Assembly (NCBI GenBank): GCA_905478465.1
Contig: CAJQIN010000012.1
Span: forward strand, 32,890-96,889
Reading direction: 5' to 3'
DNA length: 64,000 bases
Source of the DNA: Minisyncoccota bacterium
GTDB taxonomy: Bacteria > Patescibacteriota > Minisyncoccia > Phycocordibacterales > CAJQIN01
The position numbers and the translations under genes are program-made. The notes beneath the pieces are model-generated. The model saw nothing but the letters and a program-made list of their open reading frames with translations. It did no database searches and had not been told where the DNA came from. This document shows positions 171 through 57,571 of the stretch, piece after piece. The stretch's first letter is position 1, and each line of letters begins with the position of its first letter.

Positions 171-187
171 AAATGCAAAATATTTGC
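171..187. promoter_or_regulatory. 17-bp near-palindromic motif AAATGCAAAATATTTGC, upstream of the grpE-like gene. It is identical as a reverse complement to the motif in the fur/ZIP intergenic region.
   Basis: Read directly from the sequence. Its reverse complement, GCAAATATTTTGCATTT, occurs at 57555-57571. Confidence 0.35.
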
Positions 188-201
188 ACACGATAAGGAG
201 A

Positions 202-615
202 TTATCGCTTAGACCACTGTGGTGCTTTTCGAGCTTTCTTCAGACCGAACTTTCGTCGCTCTTTTGTTCTCTGGTCACGCTTAAGAAAACCAGCTTTTTT
301 AAGTTTACCTCTTAATTCAAGATCAAAAGCAACAAGTGCACGTGAGATACCGTGTCTAAGAGCTTCTGCTTGTGAGTGAGAACCTCCTCCTGATAAGTGT
401 GCTGTAACATCAAATAGTTCCTTTACCTCAGAAACAGAAAAAGCTTCTCTAGCTACTTTTGCAAGCTCAGGTGTTGGAAAATAATCTTCAATTTCACGAT
501 CATTTATTTTGAATGATGTTTTTTTAGCTCCTTTAAAAATACGAACTCGCGCAACCGATGTTTTGCGTCGTCCAACTGCTTCAATATATGTGTGTTCTGC
601 TGTTTTTGTTGCCAT
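202..615 (-). CDS. rpsI: 30S ribosomal protein S9
   Basis: 137-aa ORF. It has the conserved S9 C-terminus (GGGSHSQAEALRHGISRAL ... RDQRTKERRKFGLKKARKAPQWSKR). Confidence 0.93.
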   Translation of the reverse strand: MATKTAEHTYIEAVGRRKTSVARVRIFKGAKKTSFKINDREIEDYFPTPELAKVAREAFSVSEVKELFDVTAHLSGGGSHSQAEALRHGISRALVAFDLELRGKLKKAGFLKRDQRTKERRKFGLKKARKAPQWSKR

Positions 616-620
616 AATAA

Positions 621-968
621 TTATTCAGAAATAATAAGATTTTTCATCATACGAGCTCGTAGTCGATTAGTGGGAAGCATACCATAAACTGCTTTTCGTA
701 GTACTTCAGAGTATCCTTTTCGTGAAATCACTTGCTCCATTCGAGGTTGCTTCAAGCCACCTGGGTATCCTGAGTATTGTGAATATTTTTTCTGTACAAG
801 TTTCTTCTCGCTAATAGATGCTTTTGAAGCATTAGTAACTTCCACTTTCACATCGGGATATACATTAGGTTGATATTCTGGTAAATTTTTACCCATCAAA
901 ACAACCGCAATCTCCGTTGCTAGTCTTCCAATCTTTTTATCTGTTGCATCAAAGCTGTATGTTTTCAT
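621..968 (-). CDS. rplM: 50S ribosomal protein L13
   Basis: 115-aa ORF. L13-like sequence, and it sits immediately upstream of rpsI as in the conserved rplM-rpsI operon. Confidence 0.9.
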   Translation of the reverse strand: MKTYSFDATDKKIGRLATEIAVVLMGKNLPEYQPNVYPDVKVEVTNASKASISEKKLVQKKYSQYSGYPGGLKQPRMEQVISRKGYSEVLRKAVYGMLPTNRLRARMMKNLIISE

Positions 969-976
969 AAAAATTT

Positions 977-1324
977 CTATACAAATTCTATCTGTGCCAT
1001 TTTAGCGGCATCACTACGCTTAATATCAAGCTTGGTAATTCGAGTATATCCACCACTTCGACTCTTGTATTTAGGTGCAATATCTTCAACAAGTTTTTTT
1101 GTTGCAACTAAGCCAATACGTGAAGTAAGTATGCGACGTGCAGCAAGTGTATCTGCTTTTGCACGTGTTACAAGTTTTTCAATAACAGGCCGCATCTCTT
1201 TTGCCTTAGCTTCTGTTGTTTGAATCTTTTCGTGACTAATAAGTGACGATACGAGTGATTTCATAAGCGCTGTTCGTTGGTTTCTAACTCTGCCAAATTT
1301 TCTGTTTTTTTTGCTGTGGTTCAT
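977..1324 (-). CDS. rplQ: 50S ribosomal protein L17
   Basis: 115-aa ORF. L17 motifs are present (GRVRNQRTALMKSL, GGYTRI) and it follows rpoA as in the alpha operon. Confidence 0.9.
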   Translation of the reverse strand: MNHSKKNRKFGRVRNQRTALMKSLVSSLISHEKIQTTEAKAKEMRPVIEKLVTRAKADTLAARRILTSRIGLVATKKLVEDIAPKYKSRSGGYTRITKLDIKRSDAAKMAQIEFV

Positions 1325-1369
1325 AAAGGTGAAATGAAATACTACCTAATTTACTCTCTAAAGGCAAGC

Positions 1370-2329
1370 CTATTTTAGACTTACTTTTAACTCACTTAAT
1401 GCGGCCTTAATTTCTGTAATGCCCTTCTCACCTAGACCATCGATCTCTAGTAGATCATCTTCCTTTTTTCGGATAAGTCCTCCTATTGTACGAATATTGG
1501 CGTTTGTAAGAGCATTCTCTGTACGAGCTGATAGTTCTAGTGACTCAATACGAGTCTTGAGTATTTCTTGATCATCTTTAGAAAGTTCTTCACCCTCACT
1601 TGTTGGGATATCTGTGATAACTACCTCTGGCTCTTCTTCTTTAAAGCCGATAATAGCTTTAAGTTGACTGATCATTATCTCAATAGATTTTTCAAGTGCT
1701 TCTTTAGGAGCAACTGTTCCATTTGTTTCAATTCGAATTCGTAGACGGTTGAAATCTGTTCGATCTCCTACACGCATATTTTCAACCTCATAGTTTACAC
1801 GTTGAATAGGTGTGAATATGGCGTCCATAGCAATAGTCCCTATATCTACTTTTTCTTTCTGTAGAACATCTCTTTGTACAAAACCAATACCTTGCTGCAC
1901 TGTGATTTCCATATCAAGTTCCGCATTCTTATTTGTAAGGGTCGCAATAACCATATCATCATTCAAAATCTTCACTTGACCAGGAAGAGCTATGTCTTTT
2001 GCTGTAATGATTTGCTCTCCTTTTACTTTTAGAGTAAGTATTTGTGCTTCTGAGGTAAGCATTTGGATACTTAGTCTTTTAAGATTAAGTAAGATTGTGA
2101 TTACATCTTCTTTGATACCCTCGATAGTTGAAAACTCGTGATTTACACCAGTAATCTTAACAGAAGTAACCGCAGCACCCGGAAGAGACGACAAAATAAT
2201 TCGTCGAAGAGAGTTACCTAATGTGTGGCCGTATCCTGGATACAGACCATCTATTTCAAAAACTGCCTTGGAATCCTCTTCAAAAACAACTTTTGGTTTT
2301 GAAGGAAGTACGATGTCAAACTCGTGCAT
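1370..2329 (-). CDS. rpoA: DNA-directed RNA polymerase subunit alpha
   Basis: 319 aa with an N-terminal dimerisation domain (PGYGHTLGNSLRRIILSSLPGAAVTSVKI). It is positioned between rpsD and rplQ. Confidence 0.93.
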   Translation of the reverse strand: MHEFDIVLPSKPKVVFEEDSKAVFEIDGLYPGYGHTLGNSLRRIILSSLPGAAVTSVKITGVNHEFSTIEGIKEDVITILLNLKRLSIQMLTSEAQILTLKVKGEQIITAKDIALPGQVKILNDDMVIATLTNKNAELDMEITVQQGIGFVQRDVLQKEKVDIGTIAMDAIFTPIQRVNYEVENMRVGDRTDFNRLRIRIETNGTVAPKEALEKSIEIMISQLKAIIGFKEEEPEVVITDIPTSEGEELSKDDQEILKTRIESLELSARTENALTNANIRTIGGLIRKKEDDLLEIDGLGEKGITEIKAALSELKVSLK

Positions 2330-2395
2330 ACAAATGAATGGATTAAAAAATAACTTATAAATTATACTTCAAAATTTGTACAATAGCAACTAATG

Positions 2396-3004
2396 TTACC
2401 TACTGTAAAACTCTAGAACAGCATCTAAATTGAAAAGAAGGTCTTGAGCGGTAAGTTTTGGTGACCCCTGTACGGTAATTTTTCTTTTAGTAATATCCGA
2501 CTTCAGCCATGCTGGTGCTGTGTAGTTTTTCATTTTCTCTTCAATATCAGTAAAAAAACCTTTCTGGACACTTCCTTCTTTTACGGTAAGTTCATCCCCC
2601 TCCTTTACTTTATGGGAAGGAACATCGATCTTTTTTCCTGCGGAAAGAATATGTCCATGAGATACCATCTGACGTGCTGCTCGACGCGTAGGAGCGAATC
2701 CAGCACGGTACACAACGTTATCAAGGCGTGTTTCAAGTTTTGCAAACAAGACTTCTGTTTTCTCTGTATTTTTATCTTTCATTGTTTCCTCAACATAATT
2801 TGAGAATTGTCTTTCTGAAATACCATAAGTAAAACGAGCCTTCTGCTTTTCATTCATCTGATTTGCAAAATCTGTTTTAGCTCGTTGAAATTTACGAGTT
2901 TTACTTCTTCGTGCTTCAGAAGCTGCAAATTTTTGAGTTTGAGTTTTCTCAAAAATTGGTGCCCCTAGGCGTCGTGCTAATTTATATAATGGTCTTGCTT
3001 TCAT
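2396..3004 (-). CDS. rpsD: 30S ribosomal protein S4
   Basis: 202 aa. S4 N-terminus (ARPLYKLARRLG) and an S4 RNA-binding domain. Confidence 0.92.
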   Translation of the reverse strand: MKARPLYKLARRLGAPIFEKTQTQKFAASEARRSKTRKFQRAKTDFANQMNEKQKARFTYGISERQFSNYVEETMKDKNTEKTEVLFAKLETRLDNVVYRAGFAPTRRAARQMVSHGHILSAGKKIDVPSHKVKEGDELTVKEGSVQKGFFTDIEEKMKNYTAPAWLKSDITKRKITVQGSPKLTAQDLLFNLDAVLEFYSR

Positions 3005-3029
3005 TTCTAATTTTAAATTATAGTACCTA

Positions 3030-3461
3030 TTAGACTCTTCGTGGTTTTTTTGCTCGAGGACCGTTGTGCGGTACCGGTGTCACATCTTTAATATTTAAAA
3101 TATTAATTCCTTTTGATGTAAAGCCTCGAATGGCTGACTCTCTTCCAGAACCAACACCACTTACCACCACTTTTACATCCTTAACACCAAAAGCAGCAGC
3201 TCTTTCACCAACGGTTTCTCCGACCTTTGCAGCGGCAAAAGGTGTACCCTTTTTAGCCCCTTTAAATCCAAGAGAACCACTAGATGACCAAGCTAAAGTA
3301 CCTCCTGCAGTATCAGTAAATACGGCTTTGGTATTATTGTATGTGGCATGTACAAAAAATATACCGAGCGCATGCTTCTTTTTTCCAACTTTTGACGTCT
3401 TCTGCGCACGACTATTGTCGAACTCTCCTCCTGATTTTGTTGCAATTCTTTTCTTACCCAT
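3030..3461 (-). CDS. rpsK: 30S ribosomal protein S11
   Basis: 143 aa. S11 signature (HATYNNTKAVFTDTAGGTLAWSSSG ... RGFTSKGINI). Confidence 0.92.
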   Translation of the reverse strand: MGKKRIATKSGGEFDNSRAQKTSKVGKKKHALGIFFVHATYNNTKAVFTDTAGGTLAWSSSGSLGFKGAKKGTPFAAAKVGETVGERAAAFGVKDVKVVVSGVGSGRESAIRGFTSKGINILNIKDVTPVPHNGPRAKKPRRV

Positions 3462-3481
3462 AATATTACATTAATATAAAA

Positions 3482-3862
3482 CTATTTTTTATCAACTGCT
3501 CTACGTCCTGTACCCATGGTCTTTCGTGTGTTTCCGCGTCGAGTACGTGAATTTGTTTTTGTTCGCTGTCCTCGCGAAGGAAGACCTACAGAATGTCTCT
3601 TTCCTCGGTACGTCTGAATGTCTCTTAATCTCTTTATGTTACCTGAAACTTCTCGTTTTAAGTCACCCTCTATAACAAGTTTCTCTACTTCTTTTCGGAT
3701 AAGGGCCTCTTCTTCAGTAGTAAGTTCCTTTGCCTTTCTTCCTGAATCAATTTTAACTGATTTCAAAATCTCAAGAGCCAAAGGTCGTCCTACACCATAA
3801 ATAGCAGTGAGGCTGATCTCTAATCTTTTTTCATCTGGAATTGTAATACCTTCTATACGCAT
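3482..3862 (-). CDS. rpsM: 30S ribosomal protein S13
   Basis: 126 aa. S13 N-terminus (MRIEGITIPDEKRLEISLTAIYGVG) and a basic C-terminus. Confidence 0.92.
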   Translation of the reverse strand: MRIEGITIPDEKRLEISLTAIYGVGRPLALEILKSVKIDSGRKAKELTTEEEALIRKEVEKLVIEGDLKREVSGNIKRLRDIQTYRGKRHSVGLPSRGQRTKTNSRTRRGNTRKTMGTGRRAVDKK

Positions 3863-3881
3863 AAAATAATATGTTTAAAAA

Positions 3882-3998
3882 CTACCCTTGTCGGGCTTTT
3901 CTTCGTGGATTTTTTTTGTTAATCCGATACAGCTTACCTTTTCTTTTAACAAGCTTGTCGTTTGGATCAGATTTTTTAATTGAAGATTTAACTTTCAT
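3882..3998 (-). CDS. rpmJ: 50S ribosomal protein L36, cysteine-less (non-zinc) form. This ORF is not in the supplied ORF track.
   Basis: My own translation of the minus strand gives [38 protein letters not shown] (38 aa). It has the L36 framework (MKV..S.KK ... VKR.G ... RQG), but the four Zn ligands are replaced by D, D, N and R. It lies between infA and rpsM, the canonical rpmJ position. Confidence 0.8.
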
Positions 3999-4012
3999 GT
4001 ATTATGTAAAAA

Positions 4013-4234
4013 CTACAAACGTCTTGAAATTCTACCTTTTCCCCCGTAAGGGTCAAGATCTAATCGCACCTTATCTCCAATAAGAACTCGAATTCGATTC
4101 ATTCGCATCTTACCAGAAAGATATGCTATTTGCTCCTCCTCCACCCCTTCGAGCTTGATACGAAACATTGCGTTTGGCAAAGCTTCAGTTACAACTCCTT
4201 CAGTACTATTATCTTGTGGTTTATTTTCTTCCAT
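4013..4234 (-). CDS. infA: Translation initiation factor IF-1
   Basis: 73 aa with an S1-like fold ([61 protein letters not shown]). Confidence 0.93.
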
Positions 4235-16220: not shown

Positions 16221-19079
16221 TCAGACTTTTGTGTCTGTTGCAAAGCTGACTAACCTGTCAGGAATAAATTTCTTTAATTCGTATGATGCACTGATCCAAC
16301 GAAAAATTTCTTCTGTTTCTTTAATTTTTTGTACCACATCACCCTCAGTACTACCAACTGGAACCCGAATGGTCCCCCTCATTTTTCCATCAACCTGAAC
16401 TGCAATTGTTGTCTCAGCATCCATGATCTTCTCATGATCATACTTAGGCCAACTCTGCACATGAATAGATTCTGATCCTGCTACTACTTTCGACCACAAT
16501 TCTTCAGCAAGATAAGGAGCGAAAGGTGCCAGAATTTTTAAAGTCATCTGATACTGTTCTTTTGTTAAAGACTTAGTCTTCTCAACATGATTTAAGAATA
16601 TCATCATGGCAGAAATAGCAGTGTTAAATTTGAACTCAGACATATCACTGGTTACTTTTTTTAACATTTTGTGCAACTCTTTTTCCACACGCTCAGAAAC
16701 ACCCTCTTTTTCTATATAAGCTTCAAGTCCACACAGACGCTCTAAAAATCTTCGTATACCAGCAATACCCCCCATATCCCAGGGATACGATCCTGCCTCT
16801 CCGTACGGTCCAATAAAAGCCAAATACATACGCACAACATCTGCTCCCACCTTTTCTACCATTGCATCTGGATCCACGACGTTACCCTTAGACTTACTCA
16901 TTTTTTGTCCATCAGGACCCATAATAAGACCTCTATTGATACGCTTTCTGAAAGGTTCCATTTCTGCAACAGCACCAATATCAAAAAGTACTTTTTGTAA
17001 GAAACGAGAATAAAGCAAATGAAGTGTGGTATGTTCTGATCCTCCAAAATATTGCCCAACAGGCATCCATGCTTTCTGTGCTTCTAGCGAGGAAATAGAT
17101 TCCTTATTATGTACATCAATATACCTAAGAAAATACCAAGATGAATCAATAAAAGTATCCATCGTTTCAACTTCCGGAGTCCATCCTTTTCCAAAAATAT
17201 CTTCTGTATTCTTCTTTAACATCTCAGACTTATCCAAGGGCGCCTTGCCTGTCGGCGTAAAGTCAACATCTTCTGGTAGAATCCATGGTAAATGTTCCTC
17301 CGGAACAGCATGTGGTTTTCCATCAGGATCGAAAACAATAGGAATTGGAGTACCCCAATATCTCTGACGTCCTATGGACCAATCCCTAAGCTTAAATGTA
17401 GTCTTCAAATTTCCATTAACCTTTTCCGTTATACTCTTTTGAACCTCTGTTGAGAGACTACCGTCAAATTCTCCAGAGTTTATAAGTATCCCTTCTCCTG
17501 TATACGCGTGTCTTTCTACACTAAAAAACTCTTGAATATGCGGAAGTTCAGAGACAGGATTAAAATCCCTAAAATTATCAATAGGTACCCAGACAACATC
17601 ATGTAGACCCTTCTCTTCCTGGGTAATTTCATCTTTTTCTAGATCTCTTAGTTCAATATAAAATACTTGAGAAAAAGCTTTTCGATTAACATCCTTATGA
17701 GCCACATAAAAACGTGATTCCATTTGCCACCCAATTCTCTCTATTTTTCCAACATTTTTATACCCAGTCTCTTCTTGTACTTCACGCAAAACAGCATCTT
17801 CATAACTCTCTCCCTCTTCAACACCACCAATAACAAAAGTTTTCCAAGGCTGTTGCTTCCATTGAATTTGAATTATTCTGTCTTCCGTTGGGTGCTTAAC
17901 AATGACTTGAACATTACGTCTCGGAGAAATATCCTTACCTTCCAAAGGAGGATTATCTTTATCTACAAAAATTGGTGCAATAACTTGCACAACAGGGAGG
18001 TTGAACTTTTCTGCAAACTCAAAATCACGCTGATCATGTGCTGGTACAGCCATTACCGCGCCTGTACCATATCCTCCAAGAACATAATCGGATACAAACA
18101 CAGGAATCTCCATATTATTTGCTGGATTAATAGCGGTAATCCCTTCAAGTAATACGCCAGTTTTTTCTTTTTGATTAGCTTGACGCTCGAGTTCACTTTT
18201 TTTGATAGATTTTTGAACATATTTCCGAACCTCTTCTTTATTCTTTATTCTTGATTTATTTTCACTAAGCGCTGAATCAATAAGCTCATGCTCTGGAGCC
18301 ACCACAAGATACGTCACTCCAAAAAGAGTATCTGCTCGCGTCGTAAATACAGATATATTTTCTATAGTATCTTCTGTTATAAAATTAATAAGAGAACCCT
18401 CCGATCTTCCAATCCAATTTCTCTGCTGTTCTTTTATTTGTTCTGGCCAATCAAGATCATCAAGGTCATTTAATAACCTTTCCGCATAATCTGTAATTTT
18501 TAACATCCACTGTTTCTGTTTTCTTTTTTCTATCTCCGTACCACATCGTTCACATTTTCCATCTACCACCTGTTCATTAGCTAAAACAGTTTTACACGAC
18601 GAACACCAGTTTACTGTCGTCTCCGCTTTATACGCCAAACCTTTCTCAAACATTTTAGTAAAAATCCACTGGGTCCATTTGTAATACTTAGGATCAGATG
18701 TGCGAAGTTCTCTAGACCAATCAAACATAGTTCCCATTGATTGAAGTTGCATCTTCATGTAATCAATATTGCCATATGTCCATTTTTTTGGATCAAGTCC
18801 GTGTTTTATGGCTGCATTTTCCGCAGGAAGCCCGAAAGAATCGAAACCGATAGGATACAAAACATTCTTCCCCTGCATACGCATAAAGCGTGCATATATA
18901 TCTGGAATAGCAAAAGCATACCAATGTCCAATATGGAGATTTCCTGATGGATACGGAAATTCAACTAGTGTGTAGAAATTTTCTGCACCTTCTTTTTTTT
19001 GCGGTGTTTCGTAAAGCTTATCCTCTATCCACTTATTTTTCCATTTTTTCTCTATTTCTTTATGGTCGTATTCTTTCAT
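16221..19079 (-). CDS. leuS: Leucyl-tRNA synthetase carrying an inserted Nudix hydrolase domain of about 150 aa
   Basis: Class I motifs HIGH (NLHIGHWY) and KMSKS. ZN-1 (CSSCKTV ... CERCG), TRADTLFG and AVMAVPAHDQRDFEFAEKFNLPV are all present. Between that segment and GILINSGEFDG sits a Nudix fold with a canonical Nudix box (GGVEEGESYEDAVLREVQEETGY). I placed the start at MKEYDHKEIEKKWKNKW. The ORF track extends it to 19127. Confidence 0.88.
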   Translation of the reverse strand: MKEYDHKEIEKKWKNKWIEDKLYETPQKKEGAENFYTLVEFPYPSGNLHIGHWYAFAIPDIYARFMRMQGKNVLYPIGFDSFGLPAENAAIKHGLDPKKWTYGNIDYMKMQLQSMGTMFDWSRELRTSDPKYYKWTQWIFTKMFEKGLAYKAETTVNWCSSCKTVLANEQVVDGKCERCGTEIEKRKQKQWMLKITDYAERLLNDLDDLDWPEQIKEQQRNWIGRSEGSLINFITEDTIENISVFTTRADTLFGVTYLVVAPEHELIDSALSENKSRIKNKEEVRKYVQKSIKKSELERQANQKEKTGVLLEGITAINPANNMEIPVFVSDYVLGGYGTGAVMAVPAHDQRDFEFAEKFNLPVVQVIAPIFVDKDNPPLEGKDISPRRNVQVIVKHPTEDRIIQIQWKQQPWKTFVIGGVEEGESYEDAVLREVQEETGYKNVGKIERIGWQMESRFYVAHKDVNRKAFSQVFYIELRDLEKDEITQEEKGLHDVVWVPIDNFRDFNPVSELPHIQEFFSVERHAYTGEGILINSGEFDGSLSTEVQKSITEKVNGNLKTTFKLRDWSIGRQRYWGTPIPIVFDPDGKPHAVPEEHLPWILPEDVDFTPTGKAPLDKSEMLKKNTEDIFGKGWTPEVETMDTFIDSSWYFLRYIDVHNKESISSLEAQKAWMPVGQYFGGSEHTTLHLLYSRFLQKVLFDIGAVAEMEPFRKRINRGLIMGPDGQKMSKSKGNVVDPDAMVEKVGADVVRMYLAFIGPYGEAGSYPWDMGGIAGIRRFLERLCGLEAYIEKEGVSERVEKELHKMLKKVTSDMSEFKFNTAISAMMIFLNHVEKTKSLTKEQYQMTLKILAPFAPYLAEELWSKVVAGSESIHVQSWPKYDHEKIMDAETTIAVQVDGKMRGTIRVPVGSTEGDVVQKIKETEEIFRWISASYELKKFIPDRLVSFATDTKV

Positions 19080-19128
19080 GATGTGATGCATTGTAACATT
19101 TTTTTTAAAAGCCAAAACCCCCACCAAA

Positions 19129-19164: not shown

Positions 19165-22107
19165 CAATCCCAATTATTGTTCTTGGAATTCAGGATTCAC
19201 AGTAATCTCAAAGGGTTCAGTCTCACAGGAGTCTGTAAGTCCTTCAGTATTAGTCACAGTTACCTTTGCATTCTTGGTTCCGGTGGTTAGGAACTTCAAG
19301 GTTTGTGTTTGGTCACTGAGGTTCTGTGGTGTATATAGATTTTCATCTATTATCTCCCATTCATATGATAATCCAGTGGTTTCTCCGGTGACTACAACAG
19401 TGAGATCCATATCTTGATTCACGTAGTGAGGAGATGTGGGTTCTGCGGGTCCACAAGATCCAATATCGAAGTTACCTGTCTCTGGTGGATCTGTGGGATC
19501 AGGGTCGGTGTCAGTATCAGTATCTGATGGATCAAGATTTGAAACGGTAATGGTTTCAGAATCCATGATCTTTTGTCCATCAGGTCCGAAACAGAGATAA
19601 TAGAAAGTGGTGTTTTCTGTGATTGGACTTGAGGTTTGTGAACCAGCTACGTTTGGTGTTATTTCTTTGTAGAAAAGCTGTAATGGTGTGTAATCTGAGG
19701 TACTCCAGTTATTGTTTGCAGGATCTGAGACAGCTCCACAACTACTTGCACCTGATGAATTCCAATCAAGATCTACGGTCTCTCCTGAAGAGACAAGGTT
19801 TCGATCAACAGATAGATCAATGATGGGTAATGGTTGGAGGACGGTGACGGTTTTTTCATCAGTTACAGTGGTTCCGTCTAATCCATCACATGTAATGGTG
19901 TATGTGGTGGTACGTGTTGGTGATACTACTTTATTTCCACTTTTGATGTTGTCGGTCCAACCGTATGTGGGGGTGATTGGTATGAGTGTTAGGTCACCGA
20001 TAATAGGCATTCCTATTATCGATGGATATACCCCTGTTGTCATTACGGGTCCAACGAAATTATTATCTACCGGTACTGATACGGTTGGTATATCTGCTAA
20101 TGTTGTACTCTTTAGAGTACCGGTACAACTTGAAACATTCTCTGATGACCACTCAAGGGTTGATGAGTTTCCTCGGTCTATGGTTTCGGGTGTGATGGTG
20201 AGAGAGACGGTGGGTGCGGCGGGTTTGGTGACGGTGTATGAGTTGGAGAGGGTGCCGTAAAACAAATAAGGATCGTCTCTATAAAAAGCAATGCTTCCAT
20301 CTCGATATTTAACATATCCTAAAAATGACCAGTCTGTCGCATCTGACAAGACATACCGACTTGTTTCTTCAAAAAAATTTGCTTGCATTTCATCAAAGTC
20401 AGGTACAATAATAGTCTTAATATTAGCTACAGCAGTTCCACCTCTTCCAACAGTAGCGTCATAATCTTCTGTAGTCACGATAGCGTCTTTACTGTATCTA
20501 GAATAAGACCATTCACTAGGTTTAGATTTCATAAGCCTTAGAAGATCAGGAACATAAGCATAAATCCAACCCGAAGGATCAATAATATATACAGAAGAAT
20601 TAGAGGAACTTCTTATCATGCTATCTATTTGTTCTTCTCTGCGCTCTTCAGTAAACAAAGTAGCGTAAGCAAATCCCTGATTTCCACAAGTGTGTAACCA
20701 AATACTAATAGTTTCGATAAGCTCCTCCCCAACCTCAAAACTATCCTTATTTAAAGAGGTTGTAATGTGCACATGATGTGACACACTCAAATACGTCGCC
20801 GCCTCCACCTCCTGCCCAAACATCCCACCAACCACAATAAGTCCCACAAAAAGCATCATCATCGGAGTTGTACTTGATCGCTTCTTCAAAAGATAACCAA
20901 GACCCAACAGAATAACAATCAAAGCGATAATTGACAGAAGAATGGTTGTAATATTCCCTCCTGTATCTGTTTTTGGTGTCTGGACTTCTCGGGTTGCAAG
21001 AATACCTGAGTCATCAGCTACGGTAGTCATGATAGTTGGAGCAGTACAGTTTCGAGTGACCTCGAAAGTATACGTTCCGGTAACATCAACTTCTGGATCA
21101 ACTGATACTGTCTGGGTATCAGCACAAGAGTTGTTGTTGGCATCAACTAGAGCAATGGTCAGGGTTGGATTTGAAAGAGGGGTTGAGGTAGCTAATGATC
21201 CTGGATATGAATCAGCAGATCCTGACCAGAAGACTTCCACAGTAGCGGTGTCCCCCTTCTGGTATGAGGTTTGATCTGGGGTGACGTTTTGAATGGTGGC
21301 CGAGTTTCCTCTGATGACATAGTGAGGAGTAATTTCATTTGAGACAGTATTGTCATTTTGGAGGGTAATGATGGTGTCATATGCCTGTGGAGCCTGTGGC
21401 AGATGCATAGTGATGTCTAGGGTTTTGGTTTGATTTGACTCCAGAGTGTATGTGTCTGTACTAGTGTATGTCTCAATCACTGGACCTGAGATAGTACGTT
21501 CGTGTGTAATGAAATGTGGTGAGAGTGTTTGTGGGTCTTTTGTACTGTTTGTGACCTCACATGAGAGGATTAGGGTGTCAGTGGCTTCAAGGTCGATACC
21601 TTGGAAGATAGTATATGTCTCATTGTTGTATGTGAACAAACAAGAAGCGGTATCAATAGCAACATACTCTCCTGTTCCTTGGAGAGTGATTGTCTGTACT
21701 GGTACTTGAGAGAAACGAAGACCTGAACTGTTTTCAGATATCATCCAGATTTCGTGTTCTCCTTGGAGGTATGTGGGTGGTGTGTATGTAACTGTTTTGG
21801 TGACACGATCTCCTTCATTGAGAGCTACGATATCATCGAATACTTTGATGTCTGCTGTTTCTCCTGTTTCTGAGTTAATGAGAACAATACTGTAACGGAT
21901 ATCTGATTGATAGTTGAACTTGTTGACGATGTCGAAGTCTAGAGTATATGTATTCTCAGTTCCATTGAAATATGTTATTTCTGCATTATATATACTGACA
22001 TCTGCTACCAAGGTGAGGTCTGATGTATCAACGGGTATTTCTTCTTGCGCGAAGAGTGGGGTGATGATGAGGAGTGAAAGAAGAGAGAGAAAGGTGAGTT
22101 TTTTCAT
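19165..22107. repeat. Direct repeat copy 1, 2,943 bp, 100% identical to 44470..47412
   Basis: All ORF-track ORFs on both strands are identical at a constant offset of 25,305 bp. Read directly, identity starts at CAATCCCAATTATTG, just 3' of the stop, and ends exactly at the ATG. Confidence 0.9.
19174..22107 (-). CDS. Large secreted two-ectodomain surface protein, copy A. Order of parts: signal peptide, ectodomain 1, transmembrane hairpin, ectodomain 2 with Ig/PKD-like repeats.
   Basis: 977 aa. Signal peptide MKKLTFLSLLSLLIITPLFAQ. Transmembrane helix ITTILLSIIALIVILLGLGYLL, then a short loop KKRSSTTP, then a second hydrophobic segment MMMLFVGLIVVGGMF. C-terminal repeats of the form ...TL(E/D)W(S/N)S...SSC(T/G). 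D/T/P-rich linker DPSDTDTDTDPDPTDPPETG. Confidence 0.7.
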   Translation of the reverse strand: MKKLTFLSLLSLLIITPLFAQEEIPVDTSDLTLVADVSIYNAEITYFNGTENTYTLDFDIVNKFNYQSDIRYSIVLINSETGETADIKVFDDIVALNEGDRVTKTVTYTPPTYLQGEHEIWMISENSSGLRFSQVPVQTITLQGTGEYVAIDTASCLFTYNNETYTIFQGIDLEATDTLILSCEVTNSTKDPQTLSPHFITHERTISGPVIETYTSTDTYTLESNQTKTLDITMHLPQAPQAYDTIITLQNDNTVSNEITPHYVIRGNSATIQNVTPDQTSYQKGDTATVEVFWSGSADSYPGSLATSTPLSNPTLTIALVDANNNSCADTQTVSVDPEVDVTGTYTFEVTRNCTAPTIMTTVADDSGILATREVQTPKTDTGGNITTILLSIIALIVILLGLGYLLKKRSSTTPMMMLFVGLIVVGGMFGQEVEAATYLSVSHHVHITTSLNKDSFEVGEELIETISIWLHTCGNQGFAYATLFTEERREEQIDSMIRSSSNSSVYIIDPSGWIYAYVPDLLRLMKSKPSEWSYSRYSKDAIVTTEDYDATVGRGGTAVANIKTIIVPDFDEMQANFFEETSRYVLSDATDWSFLGYVKYRDGSIAFYRDDPYLFYGTLSNSYTVTKPAAPTVSLTITPETIDRGNSSTLEWSSENVSSCTGTLKSTTLADIPTVSVPVDNNFVGPVMTTGVYPSIIGMPIIGDLTLIPITPTYGWTDNIKSGNKVVSPTRTTTYTITCDGLDGTTVTDEKTVTVLQPLPIIDLSVDRNLVSSGETVDLDWNSSGASSCGAVSDPANNNWSTSDYTPLQLFYKEITPNVAGSQTSSPITENTTFYYLCFGPDGQKIMDSETITVSNLDPSDTDTDTDPDPTDPPETGNFDIGSCGPAEPTSPHYVNQDMDLTVVVTGETTGLSYEWEIIDENLYTPQNLSDQTQTLKFLTTGTKNAKVTVTNTEGLTDSCETEPFEITVNPEFQEQ

Positions 22108-44469: not shown

Positions 44470-47412
44470 CAATCCCAATTATTGTTCTTGGAATTCAGGA
44501 TTCACAGTAATCTCAAAGGGTTCAGTCTCACAGGAGTCTGTAAGTCCTTCAGTATTAGTCACAGTTACCTTTGCATTCTTGGTTCCGGTGGTTAGGAACT
44601 TCAAGGTTTGTGTTTGGTCACTGAGGTTCTGTGGTGTATATAGATTTTCATCTATTATCTCCCATTCATATGATAATCCAGTGGTTTCTCCGGTGACTAC
44701 AACAGTGAGATCCATATCTTGATTCACGTAGTGAGGAGATGTGGGTTCTGCGGGTCCACAAGATCCAATATCGAAGTTACCTGTCTCTGGTGGATCTGTG
44801 GGATCAGGGTCGGTGTCAGTATCAGTATCTGATGGATCAAGATTTGAAACGGTAATGGTTTCAGAATCCATGATCTTTTGTCCATCAGGTCCGAAACAGA
44901 GATAATAGAAAGTGGTGTTTTCTGTGATTGGACTTGAGGTTTGTGAACCAGCTACGTTTGGTGTTATTTCTTTGTAGAAAAGCTGTAATGGTGTGTAATC
45001 TGAGGTACTCCAGTTATTGTTTGCAGGATCTGAGACAGCTCCACAACTACTTGCACCTGATGAATTCCAATCAAGATCTACGGTCTCTCCTGAAGAGACA
45101 AGGTTTCGATCAACAGATAGATCAATGATGGGTAATGGTTGGAGGACGGTGACGGTTTTTTCATCAGTTACAGTGGTTCCGTCTAATCCATCACATGTAA
45201 TGGTGTATGTGGTGGTACGTGTTGGTGATACTACTTTATTTCCACTTTTGATGTTGTCGGTCCAACCGTATGTGGGGGTGATTGGTATGAGTGTTAGGTC
45301 ACCGATAATAGGCATTCCTATTATCGATGGATATACCCCTGTTGTCATTACGGGTCCAACGAAATTATTATCTACCGGTACTGATACGGTTGGTATATCT
45401 GCTAATGTTGTACTCTTTAGAGTACCGGTACAACTTGAAACATTCTCTGATGACCACTCAAGGGTTGATGAGTTTCCTCGGTCTATGGTTTCGGGTGTGA
45501 TGGTGAGAGAGACGGTGGGTGCGGCGGGTTTGGTGACGGTGTATGAGTTGGAGAGGGTGCCGTAAAACAAATAAGGATCGTCTCTATAAAAAGCAATGCT
45601 TCCATCTCGATATTTAACATATCCTAAAAATGACCAGTCTGTCGCATCTGACAAGACATACCGACTTGTTTCTTCAAAAAAATTTGCTTGCATTTCATCA
45701 AAGTCAGGTACAATAATAGTCTTAATATTAGCTACAGCAGTTCCACCTCTTCCAACAGTAGCGTCATAATCTTCTGTAGTCACGATAGCGTCTTTACTGT
45801 ATCTAGAATAAGACCATTCACTAGGTTTAGATTTCATAAGCCTTAGAAGATCAGGAACATAAGCATAAATCCAACCCGAAGGATCAATAATATATACAGA
45901 AGAATTAGAGGAACTTCTTATCATGCTATCTATTTGTTCTTCTCTGCGCTCTTCAGTAAACAAAGTAGCGTAAGCAAATCCCTGATTTCCACAAGTGTGT
46001 AACCAAATACTAATAGTTTCGATAAGCTCCTCCCCAACCTCAAAACTATCCTTATTTAAAGAGGTTGTAATGTGCACATGATGTGACACACTCAAATACG
46101 TCGCCGCCTCCACCTCCTGCCCAAACATCCCACCAACCACAATAAGTCCCACAAAAAGCATCATCATCGGAGTTGTACTTGATCGCTTCTTCAAAAGATA
46201 ACCAAGACCCAACAGAATAACAATCAAAGCGATAATTGACAGAAGAATGGTTGTAATATTCCCTCCTGTATCTGTTTTTGGTGTCTGGACTTCTCGGGTT
46301 GCAAGAATACCTGAGTCATCAGCTACGGTAGTCATGATAGTTGGAGCAGTACAGTTTCGAGTGACCTCGAAAGTATACGTTCCGGTAACATCAACTTCTG
46401 GATCAACTGATACTGTCTGGGTATCAGCACAAGAGTTGTTGTTGGCATCAACTAGAGCAATGGTCAGGGTTGGATTTGAAAGAGGGGTTGAGGTAGCTAA
46501 TGATCCTGGATATGAATCAGCAGATCCTGACCAGAAGACTTCCACAGTAGCGGTGTCCCCCTTCTGGTATGAGGTTTGATCTGGGGTGACGTTTTGAATG
46601 GTGGCCGAGTTTCCTCTGATGACATAGTGAGGAGTAATTTCATTTGAGACAGTATTGTCATTTTGGAGGGTAATGATGGTGTCATATGCCTGTGGAGCCT
46701 GTGGCAGATGCATAGTGATGTCTAGGGTTTTGGTTTGATTTGACTCCAGAGTGTATGTGTCTGTACTAGTGTATGTCTCAATCACTGGACCTGAGATAGT
46801 ACGTTCGTGTGTAATGAAATGTGGTGAGAGTGTTTGTGGGTCTTTTGTACTGTTTGTGACCTCACATGAGAGGATTAGGGTGTCAGTGGCTTCAAGGTCG
46901 ATACCTTGGAAGATAGTATATGTCTCATTGTTGTATGTGAACAAACAAGAAGCGGTATCAATAGCAACATACTCTCCTGTTCCTTGGAGAGTGATTGTCT
47001 GTACTGGTACTTGAGAGAAACGAAGACCTGAACTGTTTTCAGATATCATCCAGATTTCGTGTTCTCCTTGGAGGTATGTGGGTGGTGTGTATGTAACTGT
47101 TTTGGTGACACGATCTCCTTCATTGAGAGCTACGATATCATCGAATACTTTGATGTCTGCTGTTTCTCCTGTTTCTGAGTTAATGAGAACAATACTGTAA
47201 CGGATATCTGATTGATAGTTGAACTTGTTGACGATGTCGAAGTCTAGAGTATATGTATTCTCAGTTCCATTGAAATATGTTATTTCTGCATTATATATAC
47301 TGACATCTGCTACCAAGGTGAGGTCTGATGTATCAACGGGTATTTCTTCTTGCGCGAAGAGTGGGGTGATGATGAGGAGTGAAAGAAGAGAGAGAAAGGT
47401 GAGTTTTTTCAT
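44470..47412. repeat. Direct repeat copy 2, 2,943 bp, identical to 19165..22107
   Basis: See copy 1. Confidence 0.9.
44479..47412 (-). CDS. Large secreted two-ectodomain surface protein, copy B. It is 100% identical to copy A.
   Basis: Identical 977-aa translation. It is divergent from the plus-strand exonuclease gene and lacks the copy-A promoter sequence. Confidence 0.7.
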   Translation of the reverse strand: MKKLTFLSLLSLLIITPLFAQEEIPVDTSDLTLVADVSIYNAEITYFNGTENTYTLDFDIVNKFNYQSDIRYSIVLINSETGETADIKVFDDIVALNEGDRVTKTVTYTPPTYLQGEHEIWMISENSSGLRFSQVPVQTITLQGTGEYVAIDTASCLFTYNNETYTIFQGIDLEATDTLILSCEVTNSTKDPQTLSPHFITHERTISGPVIETYTSTDTYTLESNQTKTLDITMHLPQAPQAYDTIITLQNDNTVSNEITPHYVIRGNSATIQNVTPDQTSYQKGDTATVEVFWSGSADSYPGSLATSTPLSNPTLTIALVDANNNSCADTQTVSVDPEVDVTGTYTFEVTRNCTAPTIMTTVADDSGILATREVQTPKTDTGGNITTILLSIIALIVILLGLGYLLKKRSSTTPMMMLFVGLIVVGGMFGQEVEAATYLSVSHHVHITTSLNKDSFEVGEELIETISIWLHTCGNQGFAYATLFTEERREEQIDSMIRSSSNSSVYIIDPSGWIYAYVPDLLRLMKSKPSEWSYSRYSKDAIVTTEDYDATVGRGGTAVANIKTIIVPDFDEMQANFFEETSRYVLSDATDWSFLGYVKYRDGSIAFYRDDPYLFYGTLSNSYTVTKPAAPTVSLTITPETIDRGNSSTLEWSSENVSSCTGTLKSTTLADIPTVSVPVDNNFVGPVMTTGVYPSIIGMPIIGDLTLIPITPTYGWTDNIKSGNKVVSPTRTTTYTITCDGLDGTTVTDEKTVTVLQPLPIIDLSVDRNLVSSGETVDLDWNSSGASSCGAVSDPANNNWSTSDYTPLQLFYKEITPNVAGSQTSSPITENTTFYYLCFGPDGQKIMDSETITVSNLDPSDTDTDTDPDPTDPPETGNFDIGSCGPAEPTSPHYVNQDMDLTVVVTGETTGLSYEWEIIDENLYTPQNLSDQTQTLKFLTTGTKNAKVTVTNTEGLTDSCETEPFEITVNPEFQEQ

Positions 47413-48850: not shown

Positions 48851-49894
48851 CTATAAAAAGGGCAATAAATCAAGTAGCACACGCACCATTGCCTTAGTCT
48901 CATTTGCATAGACTGAAATAATAATTGAAAATATTACAAGAGCCCCGTATAACATGTTTCTAGGACGTTGTACTTTATGATGAATAAGAATCATCATAAA
49001 AAATGCAATAGCAATGAGCAGTGAAATTGCATACAAAACATACTCTGCAATCTTAGTTGGATTCAAAAGTATCCACTCATACCAAGATGTATATTTTTCA
49101 TATCCAGGGGCTTGACCCTGAAGAACTTGAGCATCATTAATATTCTCTACATCCGAAATAGGATCCATATCTAGTACAGGCTCAACGACAACGACAGGAG
49201 GAACACTTTCTACTGAAATAAATTTCTGTTCGGCACTTTCTTTTTGCTCCAATAATTCCACAGACTGTTCCTGTATATCTGTAGCGACTGATTTAGACAC
49301 GGGCATAAATACAGATGTTGCAACAGGATCTGGCACTGGTGCAGGAGTTCCAAAAGTCTGCACAACAAAAACAGTCGCATGACCATCATACGTACCCTCT
49401 GCTGTTGCAATACCAACCTCAGTAAAATTAGAATTAAGAATATTTTCACGATGCCCCGGAGAATTCAACCATGCGGCATTAACATCTACAGAGTCTGCAA
49501 AATCAATAGCCAAATTCTCTCCTCCATATATAAATTTATATCCCGCCACCCCAAACCAATACCACGGAGTAACACCATCAGGACTATTGTGTGCAAAATA
49601 TCCATTTTCTGCCATGTGATCAGCCTTAAGTTGTGCTACACGCTCAAGATCAGGACTTGTAATAAGTGGATCTAGATTATTGTCAATTCTTGTTTCATTT
49701 GTAAGATCAACAAGAACAGCAGGATAAATAGCAGATAACAAACCACTTTTTTCTACTACCACAGAAACAATCGAAGCTCCGAGAAGAGTTCCAAATATAA
49801 TAAGAAGAAAAACAAAAGTTGATACACCACGAAAAATACCTGGCCTATAATCATTTTCTTCGCTCGGAACAAAGTATGTTTTTATCTTTTTCAT
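48851..49894 (-). CDS. CAP/SCP domain protein (YkwD-like), membrane-anchored
   Basis: GYFAHNSPDG ... GENLA ... WLNSPGHRENIL. Confidence 0.72.
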   Translation of the reverse strand: MKKIKTYFVPSEENDYRPGIFRGVSTFVFLLIIFGTLLGASIVSVVVEKSGLLSAIYPAVLVDLTNETRIDNNLDPLITSPDLERVAQLKADHMAENGYFAHNSPDGVTPWYWFGVAGYKFIYGGENLAIDFADSVDVNAAWLNSPGHRENILNSNFTEVGIATAEGTYDGHATVFVVQTFGTPAPVPDPVATSVFMPVSKSVATDIQEQSVELLEQKESAEQKFISVESVPPVVVVEPVLDMDPISDVENINDAQVLQGQAPGYEKYTSWYEWILLNPTKIAEYVLYAISLLIAIAFFMMILIHHKVQRPRNMLYGALVIFSIIISVYANETKAMVRVLLDLLPFL

Positions 49895-51876: not shown

Positions 51877-51879
51877 AGA

Positions 51880-54609: not shown

Positions 54610-54644
54610 TAGAAAGAGTATAATATGATTATCAAAAGAAAGAT

Positions 54645-55100
54645 ATGTTTAAAATACTTACAGAGATCATACATACCATCGTTTCTTTAGGAGGACGAGC
54701 AAATGTAAAAACCGAACGTTTTTTAAGATATTCAGCCTCAGGTGCTTTTACCTTTATTATCGATTTTATTGGTTTATGGTTTTTGATTCAATATCTAAAC
54801 ATACATTATGTACCAGCACTTTCTATTTCTTTCCTAATATCTGCATACATTCACTACAATATTGTTCGTCACTGGGCATTCAAGGGCACTAAACGTGAAA
54901 TTTTTTCTGGATATCTAATATTTTCCACCATATCAATAACCGGCCTTTTGCTAACAACAGGAATCATGATTATTTTTGTCGAATATTCTAATCTTGGAGT
55001 ATATATTTCTAGAATTATTACTGCTTTTTTTATCGGAGTATGGAACTACAATCTAAATCTCTTTTTCAACTTTAAGACTCACAACACAGAGCTTTATTAA
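54645..55100 (+). CDS. GtrA-family membrane protein
   Basis: FLRYSASGAFTFIIDFIGLWFL ... RHWAF. Confidence 0.7.
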   Translation: MFKILTEIIHTIVSLGGRANVKTERFLRYSASGAFTFIIDFIGLWFLIQYLNIHYVPALSISFLISAYIHYNIVRHWAFKGTKREIFSGYLIFSTISITGLLLTTGIMIIFVEYSNLGVYISRIITAFFIGVWNYNLNLFFNFKTHNTELY

Positions 55101-55181
55101 GAGTAAAATATCTCCTCAAAAAAATCACAGAATATATTCTGTGATTTTTTGTTAATTCTTTAAATTAAAACACCAATACCC

Positions 55182-56972
55182 TTACTTCTGTCTAGGGTTT
55201 TTCTTCCTAGCATTTTCAGTCAGAAACTTCTTTCGAAGACGAATGTCCTCAGGTGTAATCTCAAGGTATTCATCATCTCTCATTAATCCAAGAGCTCTCT
55301 CAAGAGTTAGATCAAAATGTGGAGTAATTTGAACCACACCATCAGATCCTGAAGCTCGCATGTTCGTCAACTGCTTTCCTTTTATGGGGTTTACTGTCAT
55401 GTCTTCACCTTTTGATGTATTTCCAACCACCATTCCTTCATACACATCGGTTGTTGGAGGAATATAAAGCACACCTCTTTCTTGCAAGTTTGCAAGCGCA
55501 AAAGCCAAAGATTTTCCGGTAATCATAGACACCATTGATCCATACTCAGTTTTCATAATGGCTCCTGCATAAGGACGAAAATCTAGAAAAAGAGAAGTCA
55601 TAATACCCTCTCCCTTTGTCTCAATTACAAATTCGTTTCGATACCCAAGTAATCCTCGTGTTGGCACATGAAAAACCATTCTAGTCTGACTACCTTCTTG
55701 CTTCATATCCATCATTATTCCTTTTCTATTTCCAAGTTTTTCTATAACAACACCTGAAAATTCTGTTGGTACAAGAATGGTAACTTCTTCAAATGGTTCA
55801 CTTTTCACACCATCTATTTCCTTAACAATAACTTCTGGTTGTGAGACAGCTATTTCAAATCCTTCTCGACGCATATGCTCAAGAAGCACGGCAAGATGGA
55901 GTTCTCCACGTCCAAATACTTGAAAACGATTATCCTCACCGAAAGTAATTCTGAGTCCAACATTAATTTCAAGTTCTTTTGCAAGTCGATCACGAATCTG
56001 TCTAGAGGTAAGGAATTTTCCTGAGCGCCCCGCAAAAGGAGAATCGTTTACAAACATAAAAAGAGATAAGGTCGGCTCATCAACAGTAATGGCCGGTAAC
56101 ATTTCCCCATCTTCAACATCAACAATGGTGTGCCCAATATAAATCTCTGGTATACCGGCAATCATTACAATATCTCCAGTTTCAGCCTGATCCTCTGCCT
56201 TCTTTTGCATCCCCTCAAACGTAAAAAGTTTAGTTATTTTTCCTTTAAAAACTTCACCTGTAGGACTTTTGGCAAATACTTCTTGTCCTTGTTTTACAAC
56301 TCCAGAATAAATACGACAAATACCCATACGTCCAAGAAAATTATCATATGCGAGGTTAAACACTTGTGCCTGAAGAGGTTTTGTTTTTGATTCACTATCT
56401 GAAGCAGGTGGAACTACTTCTAAAATTAAGTCCAGAAGCGGTGACAAGTCACCTGATTCATCTTCCATTTTTATTTTAGCCATTCCATCACGTCCGATTG
56501 CATACACAGTTTTAAAATCTAACTGTTCTTCTGTCGCTCCTAAATCAAAAAATAATTCATACACTTCATCATGAGACTTCTTCACATCAGCAGTAGGCTT
56601 GTCAATTTTATTTAATACTAGAATAGGTTTCAGTCCAAGCTCCAGGGATTTCTTAAGCACAAATTTTGTTTGTGGCATTGGACCTTCAGCAGCATCTACA
56701 ACAAGAAGTACCGAGTCAATTGACCGCAATACACGTTCCACCTCTGAACCAAAGTCGGCATGTCCTGGTGTATCGAGAATATTGATTTTCGTATCCTTAT
56801 AAAAAACGGAGGTATTTTTAGCATAAATAGTAATACCACGCTCTTTTTCAAGATCATCTGAGTCCATAGTAGTGCCTTCTTCTACCATACCTGCCTGTTT
56901 CAAAATGGCATCTGTTAGAGTTGTTTTGCCATGGTCAACGTGAGCAATAATAGCTATATTTCTAATTTCCAT
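55182..56972 (-). CDS. typA: Translational GTPase TypA/BipA
   Basis: IRNIAIIAHVDHGKTTLTD ... DTPGHADF ... NKIDK. Confidence 0.92.
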   Translation of the reverse strand: MEIRNIAIIAHVDHGKTTLTDAILKQAGMVEEGTTMDSDDLEKERGITIYAKNTSVFYKDTKINILDTPGHADFGSEVERVLRSIDSVLLVVDAAEGPMPQTKFVLKKSLELGLKPILVLNKIDKPTADVKKSHDEVYELFFDLGATEEQLDFKTVYAIGRDGMAKIKMEDESGDLSPLLDLILEVVPPASDSESKTKPLQAQVFNLAYDNFLGRMGICRIYSGVVKQGQEVFAKSPTGEVFKGKITKLFTFEGMQKKAEDQAETGDIVMIAGIPEIYIGHTIVDVEDGEMLPAITVDEPTLSLFMFVNDSPFAGRSGKFLTSRQIRDRLAKELEINVGLRITFGEDNRFQVFGRGELHLAVLLEHMRREGFEIAVSQPEVIVKEIDGVKSEPFEEVTILVPTEFSGVVIEKLGNRKGIMMDMKQEGSQTRMVFHVPTRGLLGYRNEFVIETKGEGIMTSLFLDFRPYAGAIMKTEYGSMVSMITGKSLAFALANLQERGVLYIPPTTDVYEGMVVGNTSKGEDMTVNPIKGKQLTNMRASGSDGVVQITPHFDLTLERALGLMRDDEYLEITPEDIRLRKKFLTENARKKNPRQK

Positions 56973-57113
56973 AAAATAAATAATTAAATTGTTGTTTGTA
57001 TAAAAAACCTGAGTTTTTTGTTAGTTTTTCAAGATTATCAAGAAAAAAATAATCCGTAGTTTTTACACGGAAGAAGAATAACTATACACTATTTTTAAAA
57101 AAGATAAAGGGTA

Positions 57114-57533
57114 CTAATAATTATTTTTTGATACCCCGCATTTATTACACACCCCAAAAAATTCAAGCATATGACGATCTATACTAGAAAATGACCTAGT
57201 CTCTTTTATAACACTCTTTAAAATAGCAGGAGAAATACAGGCAGCAATCTCTTCTTTATACCCACATACCGTACATACAACATGATGATGGTGGTGTTCC
57301 TGAAATTCAAAATACGCCTTTCCTTTTCTAAAATCTGTCTGGTACACCAGCCCTCGAGAAACAAATATATCAAGAATACGATACACAGTTACTTTATTAA
57401 GAAATCCAACCCCTAAGGAAATATTCTCAATAGTGAGAGGTTCTCCTGTATCGATTAGATATTGCAAAACAGCAAGTCTTCCCTTGGTCACTTTCATGTG
57501 ATTTAGCTTAATAAGCTCTTGTGCATTCTTCAT
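57114..57533 (-). CDS. Fur-family metalloregulator. Zur is likely, given the divergent ZIP transporter.
   Basis: KVTKGRLAVLQYL HTH region, His-rich HHHHHVVCTVCG and a C-terminal CxxC. Confidence 0.8.
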   Translation of the reverse strand: MKNAQELIKLNHMKVTKGRLAVLQYLIDTGEPLTIENISLGVGFLNKVTVYRILDIFVSRGLVYQTDFRKGKAYFEFQEHHHHHVVCTVCGYKEEIAACISPAILKSVIKETRSFSSIDRHMLEFFGVCNKCGVSKNNY

Positions 57534-57554
57534 ATTTTATAGTATACTCTAAAA

Positions 57555-57571
57555 GCAAATATTTTGCATTT
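57555..57571. promoter_or_regulatory. Near-palindromic 17-mer GCAAATATTTTGCATTT in the fur/ZIP divergent intergenic region (candidate Fur/Zur box)
   Basis: Read directly from the sequence. It is the exact reverse complement of 171-187. Confidence 0.45.

Follow-up and report, generated by a model that had tools for sequence, protein, structure and literature searches.

Why should one short, nearly palindromic sequence stand both between the divergent genes of a metalloregulator and a metal importer and upstream of the chaperone gene grpE? The question is raised by a 64,000-nucleotide stretch of a Minisyncoccota bacterium genome (assembly GCA_905478465.1, contig CAJQIN010000012.1, positions 32,890 to 96,889 of the forward strand), which was analysed at its full length and is referred to below as the window; coordinates are counted from its first nucleotide unless a locus label (L followed by a number) is given. 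The 17-mer GCAAATATTTTGCATTT occurs on the plus strand at 57555-57571, in the spacer between a Fur-family regulator gene and a ZIP-family transporter gene, and its exact reverse complement occurs at 171-187, between rpsI and a partial grpE gene. An initial annotation of this DNA had reported the pair with its gene context and had read it as a Fur/Zur-family operator. The positions are correct and the identity in fact extends over 18 nucleotides (the reverse complement of 170-187 equals 57555-57572), while the genes named, rpsI, the partial grpE, the Fur-family gene and the ZIP gene, are confirmed by Pfam matches and by the full grpE locus. Judging from sequence, we favor on balance the reading that the Fur-family (Zur-like) repressor encoded at 57114-57533 uses both copies as its operators and that the copy near grpE (site 1) most likely puts grpE-dnaK-dnaJ under the same metal-dependent repression as the copy at the regulator and importer genes (site 2). 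Both copies are identical in independent assemblies from different samples, and this recurrence rules out an assembly artefact.

The box between the regulator and ZIP genes

The regulator gene (zur-like; 57114-57533, minus strand) encodes a protein of 139 residues that carries the motif HHHHH-x2-CxxC followed by a second CxxC and matches PF01475 (E = 1.2e-15). Its divergent neighbor (57591-58328, plus strand) encodes a ZupT-like divalent metal importer of the ZIP family (PF02535, E = 3.9e-46, with a weak NCBIfam ZupT match). The 57-bp spacer between the two genes contains site 2 (57549-57573), the core of which, AGCAAATATTTTGCA, lies at 57554-57568. For comparison, 80 Paceibacteria loci encoding a homologue of the Fur-family gene were collected (L021-L100). 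The closest regulator homologues are about 50% identical and all come from metagenome-assembled genomes (MAGs) of the candidate phyla radiation (CPR; Patescibacteria), namely from Paceibacteria, and the best match to a GTDB representative is 51% identical. In 45 of the 80 loci the 200 nt preceding the regulator gene contain a perfect TGCAA-N5-TTGCA core, and in 21 more a version with one mismatch (66/80 in all). The other 555 kb of these loci hold only 12 perfect cores, nine of them directly upstream of separately transcribed ZIP genes; with ZIP promoters set aside, the background amounts to only about three perfect cores.

A ZIP gene adjoins the regulator gene in 52 of the 80 loci, where it is divergent (35 loci), downstream in the same direction (nine) or upstream in the same direction (eight). 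The box accompanies the regulator gene also in 28 loci without an adjacent ZIP gene, and its retention there is the usual comparative signature of autoregulation. The presence of the box at 66 regulator loci and at separately transcribed ZIP genes supports the earlier proposal of a Fur/Zur-family operator in the zur/ZIP promoter region, and site 2 is very likely the operator of the regulator.

The shape of the motif was defined with a symmetrised weight matrix of 25 nt built from 82 boxes of relatives, with the window excluded. Its consensus, ATAAATGCAAATAATTTGCATTTAT, is highly informative at TGCAA and TTGCA and has a center and flanks rich in A/T, so that the motif reads as a 7-1-7 inverted repeat, TGCAAAT-n-ATTTGCA, which extends with its A/T flanks from 15 bp to about 21 bp (consensus AAATGCAAAT-n-ATTTGCATTT). 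The initial annotation had described a 13-bp palindromic core; the palindrome stands, but the functional unit is wider, comprising the 15-21 bp of the repeat and its flanks. Site 2 reads AGCAAAT-A-TTTTGCA and is the best match in the window to this relatives-only matrix (22.0 bits), although one core base deviates (AGCAA).

The position of the box relative to the promoter is also conserved. Among the 66 loci with a box, a TATAAT-like hexamer follows it after 5-8 nt in 53 and stands 6-8 nt before the regulator ATG in 35, a modal geometry that implies leaderless regulator mRNAs and places the box at roughly -34 to -20, over the -35 hexamer and the spacer. The zur side of the window fits this geometry exactly, reading box, TTTAGAG, TATACT (57546-57541), ATAAAAT, ATG; the inferred -10 hexamer TATACT (57541-57546, minus strand) is thus separated by 7 nt from the box and again by 7 nt from the start codon. 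On the ZIP side, a -10-like hexamer occurs 2-8 nt after the box in the relatives, with a leader of variable length, and the candidate here is TAAAAT (57571-57576, plus strand), with 2 nt between it and the box and 14 nt between it and the ATG. The earlier suggestion that the element overlaps the -35 elements of both divergent promoters is supported by its position in the -35/spacer region.

Site 2 would thus represent the ancestral operator of the Paceibacteria regulator clade. On the zur side the box would cover the -35 hexamer and the spacer of a promoter that probably yields a leaderless mRNA, and a metal-loaded dimer would occlude both the zur and the ZIP promoters; on metal shortage, most likely of zinc, importer and regulator would both be derepressed. 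In these terms there is nothing unusual in site 2 as a Fur/Zur-type autoregulatory operator shared with a metal importer; the novelty lies in its sequence and in the clade that hosts it.

Several further observations concern this motif and its surroundings. No obvious Shine-Dalgarno sequence was seen in the start regions read (rplM, grpE, dnaK and ZIP). At least 16 related loci, mostly without an adjacent ZIP gene (for example L054, L056, L061, L062, L078, L084 and L090), carry two boxes upstream of the regulator gene at a center-to-center distance of 44-46 bp, and this fixed spacing suggests either cooperative binding or two promoters. A perfect box away from zur and ZIP occurs in L088 (2563-2577), at the start of a gene for a 140-residue membrane protein ending in HDHHH and next to one for a 376-residue membrane protein with HHHHSH at its end; both genes may be additional, metal-related members of the regulon in relatives. 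Immediately downstream of the ZIP gene of the window and convergent with it is a FliA/WhiG-like sigma factor gene (58389-59231, minus strand; the best NCBIfam matches, WhiG and FliA, are below cut-off), which is odd in that no flagellar genes are found in the window.

The copy upstream of grpE-dnaK-dnaJ

Site 1 (169-193; core TGCAAAATATTTGCA at 174-188) lies in the 78-bp spacer between rpsI (202-615, minus strand; PF00380), which is the last gene of an rpoA-rplQ-rplM-rpsI string (rplM, 621-968, minus strand), and the 5' end of grpE (1-123, minus strand). The operon continues beyond the window with the remainder of grpE (179 residues in full), dnaK (641 residues) and dnaJ (282 residues). Contigs of the same species contain the full locus with rpsI, grpE, dnaK and dnaJ in this order, the products in L001 and L187 matching PF01025, PF00012, and PF00226 with PF01556. 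The site 1 spacer is identical in 10 contigs of the species.

The initial annotation considered the chance recurrence of an exact 17-mer in 64 kb very unlikely. This is wrong: windows simulated with an order-2 Markov model contain on average 1.03 exact 17-mer pairs, at least one pair being present in 63% of them, and on average 0.29 pairs of 18-mers. Once a duplication of 2.9 kb is masked, three further repeats of at least 18 nt remain in the real window. Since exact repeats of 17-18 nt are expected by chance, the repeat as such is not evidence. The two copies amount to more than chance because both are intergenic, because they are the only strong matrix matches and because a score as high as that of site 1 is rare. 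Site 1 reads TGCAAAT-A-TTTTGCA, with a perfect TGCAA-N5-TTGCA core, and is the second-best match in the window to the relatives-only matrix (17.5 bits), the third-best in the 64 kb reaching only 4.9 bits. A score of at least 17.46 bits arises in 1.7% of simulated 64-kb windows (p = 0.017) and in 0.17% (0.0017) of simulated intergenic-like sets of 4.4 kb, which is the intergenic share of the window (6.9%) into which both copies fall. The matrix scan found no third site in about 82 kb of this genome (the window plus about 18 kb from the 10-kb flanks on each side). The 15-mer of site 1 is identical to the zur-proximal box of another genome (L053).

The two sites also resemble each other more closely than their common membership of the family would require. 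Even two true sites, if drawn from the family matrix, would agree at all 18 positions with a probability of about 8e-4, and the shared bases include one that is found in only 8% of family sites. Because this identity is so improbable, it points to a species-specific preference of the regulator or to the copying of one site from the other. We consider it likely, from these sequence statistics, that site 1 is a high-affinity site for the protein that would also bind site 2.

How a bound dimer would act on grpE depends on the promoter. Read toward grpE, the order is box, TT, TATTGT, 16 nt, TAGAAT, 20 nt, ATG. The first candidate -10 hexamer, TATTGT (166-171, minus strand), follows site 1 after 2 nt, a gap equal to that on the ZIP side; the alternative and better one, TAGAAT (144-149, minus strand), follows it after 24 nt and precedes the grpE ATG by 20 nt. 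If TATTGT serves the promoter, the box would occupy about -29 to -15, and if TAGAAT does, about -51 to -37. Both positions are compatible with repression, and the latter also with activation, a mode of action described for Zur at zitB (PMC5472717). Site 1 would accordingly be expected to occlude a local promoter, whether that with TATTGT or that with TAGAAT, and alternatively or additionally it might block read-through from the ribosomal-protein genes. In relatives the corresponding spacers can shrink to 21 nt, which makes it probable that read-through from these genes contributes to grpE transcription; a dimer bound at site 1 could then form a roadblock to it. In B. subtilis, Zur boxes inside transcription units cause 4- to 9-fold repression in cis (PMC4324032). 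Observed here are the sequence, its conservation, the geometry and the statistics; the binding protein, the metal, and the direction and size of any effect on grpE are inferences.

Several results weigh against a regulatory role of site 1. A consensus scan of the rpsI-grpE spacer found no sigma-70-type promoter, and the site lacks the modal layout of box, 7 nt, TATAAT, 7 nt and ATG. Conservation was examined at 86 related grpE loci, comprising 80 metagenomic loci (L101-L180; GrpE 43-66% identical), L181-L185 and L190. The order rpsI-grpE-dnaK is kept in most related loci; the rpsI-grpE spacers of the 80 metagenomic loci contain no box of 10 bits or more, and there is no box in the five closest-relative contigs (L181-L185; GrpE 60-65% identical, spacers of 21-85 nt) or in L190. 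Site 1, absent from 86 of 86 loci, is without a phylogenetic footprint, and the chaperone link is therefore lineage-specific rather than ancestral. Absence from orthologous spacers, which the initial annotation had itself held to count against its reading, is thus what was found for site 1. Of the features expected if grpE belonged to the metal regulon, the site has a high score that is unlikely by chance, but it lacks conservation. Both spacers are identical in all contigs of the species, including a variant with 99% identical GrpE, and with all strains alike the population data are uninformative. The literature searched, Zur regulon reviews included, gave no link between Zur and dnaK or grpE. 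Binding, moreover, need not mean regulation: in B. subtilis Zur occupies 80 sites, of which only seven regions form the primary regulon, many bound sites having no clear function (PMC4324032).

The most serious alternative is that site 2 is a real operator and site 1 a fortuitous or neutral one, bound or not, that has no meaningful effect on grpE-dnaK-dnaJ. The missing footprint and promoter geometry and the absence of a predicted promoter are what it would lead one to expect. Chance repeats of 17-18 nt occur at about 0.3-1 per window, and the rate of 0.017 high-scoring sites per 64 kb, scaled to a genome of about 1 Mb (an assumed size), corresponds to about 0.25 chance sites per genome. We nevertheless regard this alternative as unlikely. 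Site 1 lies in the small intergenic fraction, directly upstream of an operon start, a position for which the intergenic simulation gives the chance as 0.0017; the gap between its score and the next is very large (17.5 against 4.9 bits); its identity with site 2 covers variable positions, including the rare base; and a strong box occurs in this gene string in an independent lineage as well.

In that lineage (L168, L188 and L189), a box of 23.5 bits stands 25 nt upstream of rplM and is followed after 7 nt by TAATCT, ahead of the genes rplM-rpsI-grpE-dnaK (L168 27-51, L188 45-69, L189 27-51). The three contigs, which derive from different assemblies, all end 26-44 nt upstream of the box; comparison with L190 indicates that it sits in the rplQ-rplM spacer and not in a zur/ZIP neighborhood, and the rplQ-rplM spacer of L190 keeps the left half-site only. 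Being one case among 86 loci, the observation is anecdotal; if it is true that site 1 controls the Hsp70 genes, this box would mean that the other lineage gained such a link convergently. In the 80 zur loci, zur is not linked to rplM, rpsI, grpE or dnaK, except for a convergent dnaK-dnaJ pair in L064.

Site 1 is on these sequence criteria a statistically solid, lineage-specific second operator before the Hsp70 operon, for which an effect is plausible. Whether it regulates grpE-dnaK-dnaJ we regard as evenly balanced, and we propose only tentatively that in this marine lineage these genes are under direct control, through a newly gained operator, of the one Fur-family sensor that the examined sequence contains, which would couple zinc or other metal status to folding capacity in a reduced genome whose examined part showed neither an hrcA gene nor a CIRCE element.

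The metal sensed

An alignment of the clade shows invariant H81-84, C87, C90, C129 and C132, corresponding to a Cys4 structural site and an HHHH run. The HHHH-x2-CxxC motif presumably resembles that of the Zur proteins of M. tuberculosis and S. coelicolor. Comparison with characterized subfamilies does not show zinc specificity in the protein sequence: PDB profiles of Fur (85 and 84 bits), PerR (78 bits) and M. tuberculosis FurB/Zur (71 bits) score about equally, and the NCBIfam scores for PerR (59 bits), Fur (57 bits) and Zur (20 bits) are all below the cut-offs. ZIP/ZupT transporters, moreover, carry several divalent metals and are not specific for zinc. A second alternative is accordingly that the regulator is not a zinc sensor; as a Fur-, Mur- or PerR-like protein it would sense iron, manganese or peroxide, and the grpE-dnaK link would reflect oxidative or iron stress. 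Only the signal is at issue in this alternative, which leaves the operator reading intact. Its support comes from the order of the NCBIfam and PDB scores, with PerR and Fur ahead of Zur, and from the broad substrate range of the importers.

Against it stand the adjacency of ZIP and regulator genes in 52 of the 80 loci, the invariance of HHHH-x2-CxxC in the clade, a box that differs by one substitution per half-site from the actinobacterial Zur boxes and the documentation of zupT, a ZIP gene, as a direct Zur target in Francisella and Cupriavidus (PMC6103462). Compared with that arrangement, the pair described here is a conserved divergent one, with a single operator in a spacer of 57 bp and a regulator mRNA that appears to be leaderless. 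Zur boxes are typically 7-1-7 or 9-1-9 palindromes (PMC6103462), and those of mycobacteria read TAATGAAAATGATTTTCATTA (PMC4298942). The boxes of Mycobacterium and Streptomyces are, like that described here, AT-rich palindromes of about 21 bp with a 7-1-7 core that are bound by a Fur-family protein and overlap the promoters of zinc-uptake genes. The half-site TGAAAAT of the actinobacterial box becomes TGCAAAT in the present one, the C at position 3 of the half-site being nearly invariant here (frequency 0.96). The host also differs, belonging to the CPR (Paceibacteria), and the targets in about 82 kb are ZIP, the regulator itself and, unusually, grpE-dnaK-dnaJ as a putative one. We infer zinc from the tight ZIP linkage together with the similarity to the actinobacterial boxes; on this sequence-based argument the signal is probably zinc, and a non-zinc sensor is rather unlikely.

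Within the wider Fur family, the B. subtilis boxes are TGATAAT-n-ATTATCA for Fur, TCGTAAT-n-ATTACGA for Zur and TTATAAT-n-ATTATAA for PerR. They have in common with the present motif the 7-1-7 repeat, the AAT-n-ATT center, the A/T-rich flanks and repression by promoter occlusion. Half-site positions 2-4, which discriminate between paralogous regulators, are GCA here and match none of the three.

The initial annotation had also seen a zinc-sparing theme in the window, and this holds only in part. The rpmJ gene (3882-3998, minus strand), the only copy seen, does encode a Cys-less L36, but it has no box nearby; the best score in its vicinity within the ~82 kb scanned, 4.9 bits, lies inside infA. 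DnaJ (282 residues; L001 9001-9849, outside the window) lacks the CXXCXGXG zinc finger, its two-segment match skipping the Cys-rich region, but the DnaJ proteins of L183 and L184, the two close relatives with a readable dnaJ, are likewise short (about 280 residues) and without the zinc finger, yet these loci have no box. The DnaJ of the more distant L190 is the zinc-finger form. No pair of ribosomal-protein paralogues turned up in the window, where no search aimed at such pairs was made.

Other readings of the element and its significance

The position of site 1 before grpE-dnaK-dnaJ, with no hrcA gene or controlling inverted repeat of chaperone expression (CIRCE) upstream, would also be expected if the element served heat shock or general stress and answered to a regulator akin to HrcA, HspR or CtsR that controls zur/ZIP as well. 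We consider this very improbable. There is no match to TTAGCACTC-N9-GAGTGCTAA (CIRCE, up to four mismatches), CTTGAGT-N7-ACTCAAG or GGTCAAANANGGTCAAA (up to two mismatches) in the window, L186 or L187, that is, no CIRCE, HspR-associated inverted repeat (HAIR) or CtsR match in about 82 kb, and no CIRCE in 80 related grpE loci. In 66 of 80 loci the box goes with the Fur-family gene regardless of the neighbors, and it is absent from the 86 grpE loci. The arrangement is reminiscent of the HrcA/CIRCE system in that a palindromic operator precedes an Hsp70 operon, but the sequence is unrelated to CIRCE, hrcA is not at its usual place upstream of grpE (it was not searched for elsewhere) and the operator is shared with a metal-homeostasis divergon.

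Equally improbable is a generic promoter or UP-like element, which the initial annotation had offered as its alternative, or at site 1 a terminator hairpin of rpsI: the half-site TTGCAT/TTGCAA does resemble a -35 hexamer and the site 1 RNA can form a 7-bp hairpin followed by UUUAUU, but only two of about 60 intergenic segments carry the element, which rejects a generic one, none is found in the 18 kb of extra flank, and the hairpin has only two G-C pairs in a spacer with an ordinary fold (z = -0.71) and no terminator found by scanning, site 2 moreover lying between divergent starts, where a terminator makes no sense. Counts of near-matches agree, as TGCAA-N5-TTGCA with up to one mismatch occurs twice in the window against a shuffle mean of 3.5 and is thus not enriched; GCAAATATTTTGC with up to two mismatches occurs 10 times against 3.8 in shuffles, the extra matches scoring poorly on the matrix.

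Some features of the window are recorded here apart from the operator. The duplication masked above is an exact direct repeat of about 2.9 kb (19165-22107 and 44470-47412, 25 kb apart) that holds a whole open reading frame (ORF) of 977 codons without a Pfam match (19174-22107 and 44479-47412, minus strand). Another exact 18-mer, GAGGTTGGTATTGCAACA, occurs in inverted orientation within a CAP-domain gene (49403-49420; gene 48851-49894) and within the ZIP coding region (57975-57992); with about 0.3 such pairs expected per window, it is probably due to chance. The leucyl-tRNA synthetase ORF (16221-19127, minus strand) has a NUDIX domain match inserted at residues 404-519, and the gene of another class-I synthetase, which has a leucyl editing domain, lies just past the right end of the window (L186 6950-9079).

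Transcriptional regulation in the CPR/Patescibacteria, a group that cannot be grown alone, is almost unstudied, and the literature searched gave nothing on Fur-family regulators in the CPR. TGCAA-N5-TTGCA provides a concrete, testable operator motif for a clade of Fur-family proteins found widely in Paceibacteria, together with a promoter geometry and ZIP as the core target, and motif and geometry allow regulon prediction across hundreds of MAGs. If site 1 is inert, it would be a clean case of a high-scoring, non-conserved site; if it is functional, it would represent an unreported link between metal homeostasis and Hsp70 and an instance of regulon rewiring in a minimal genome.

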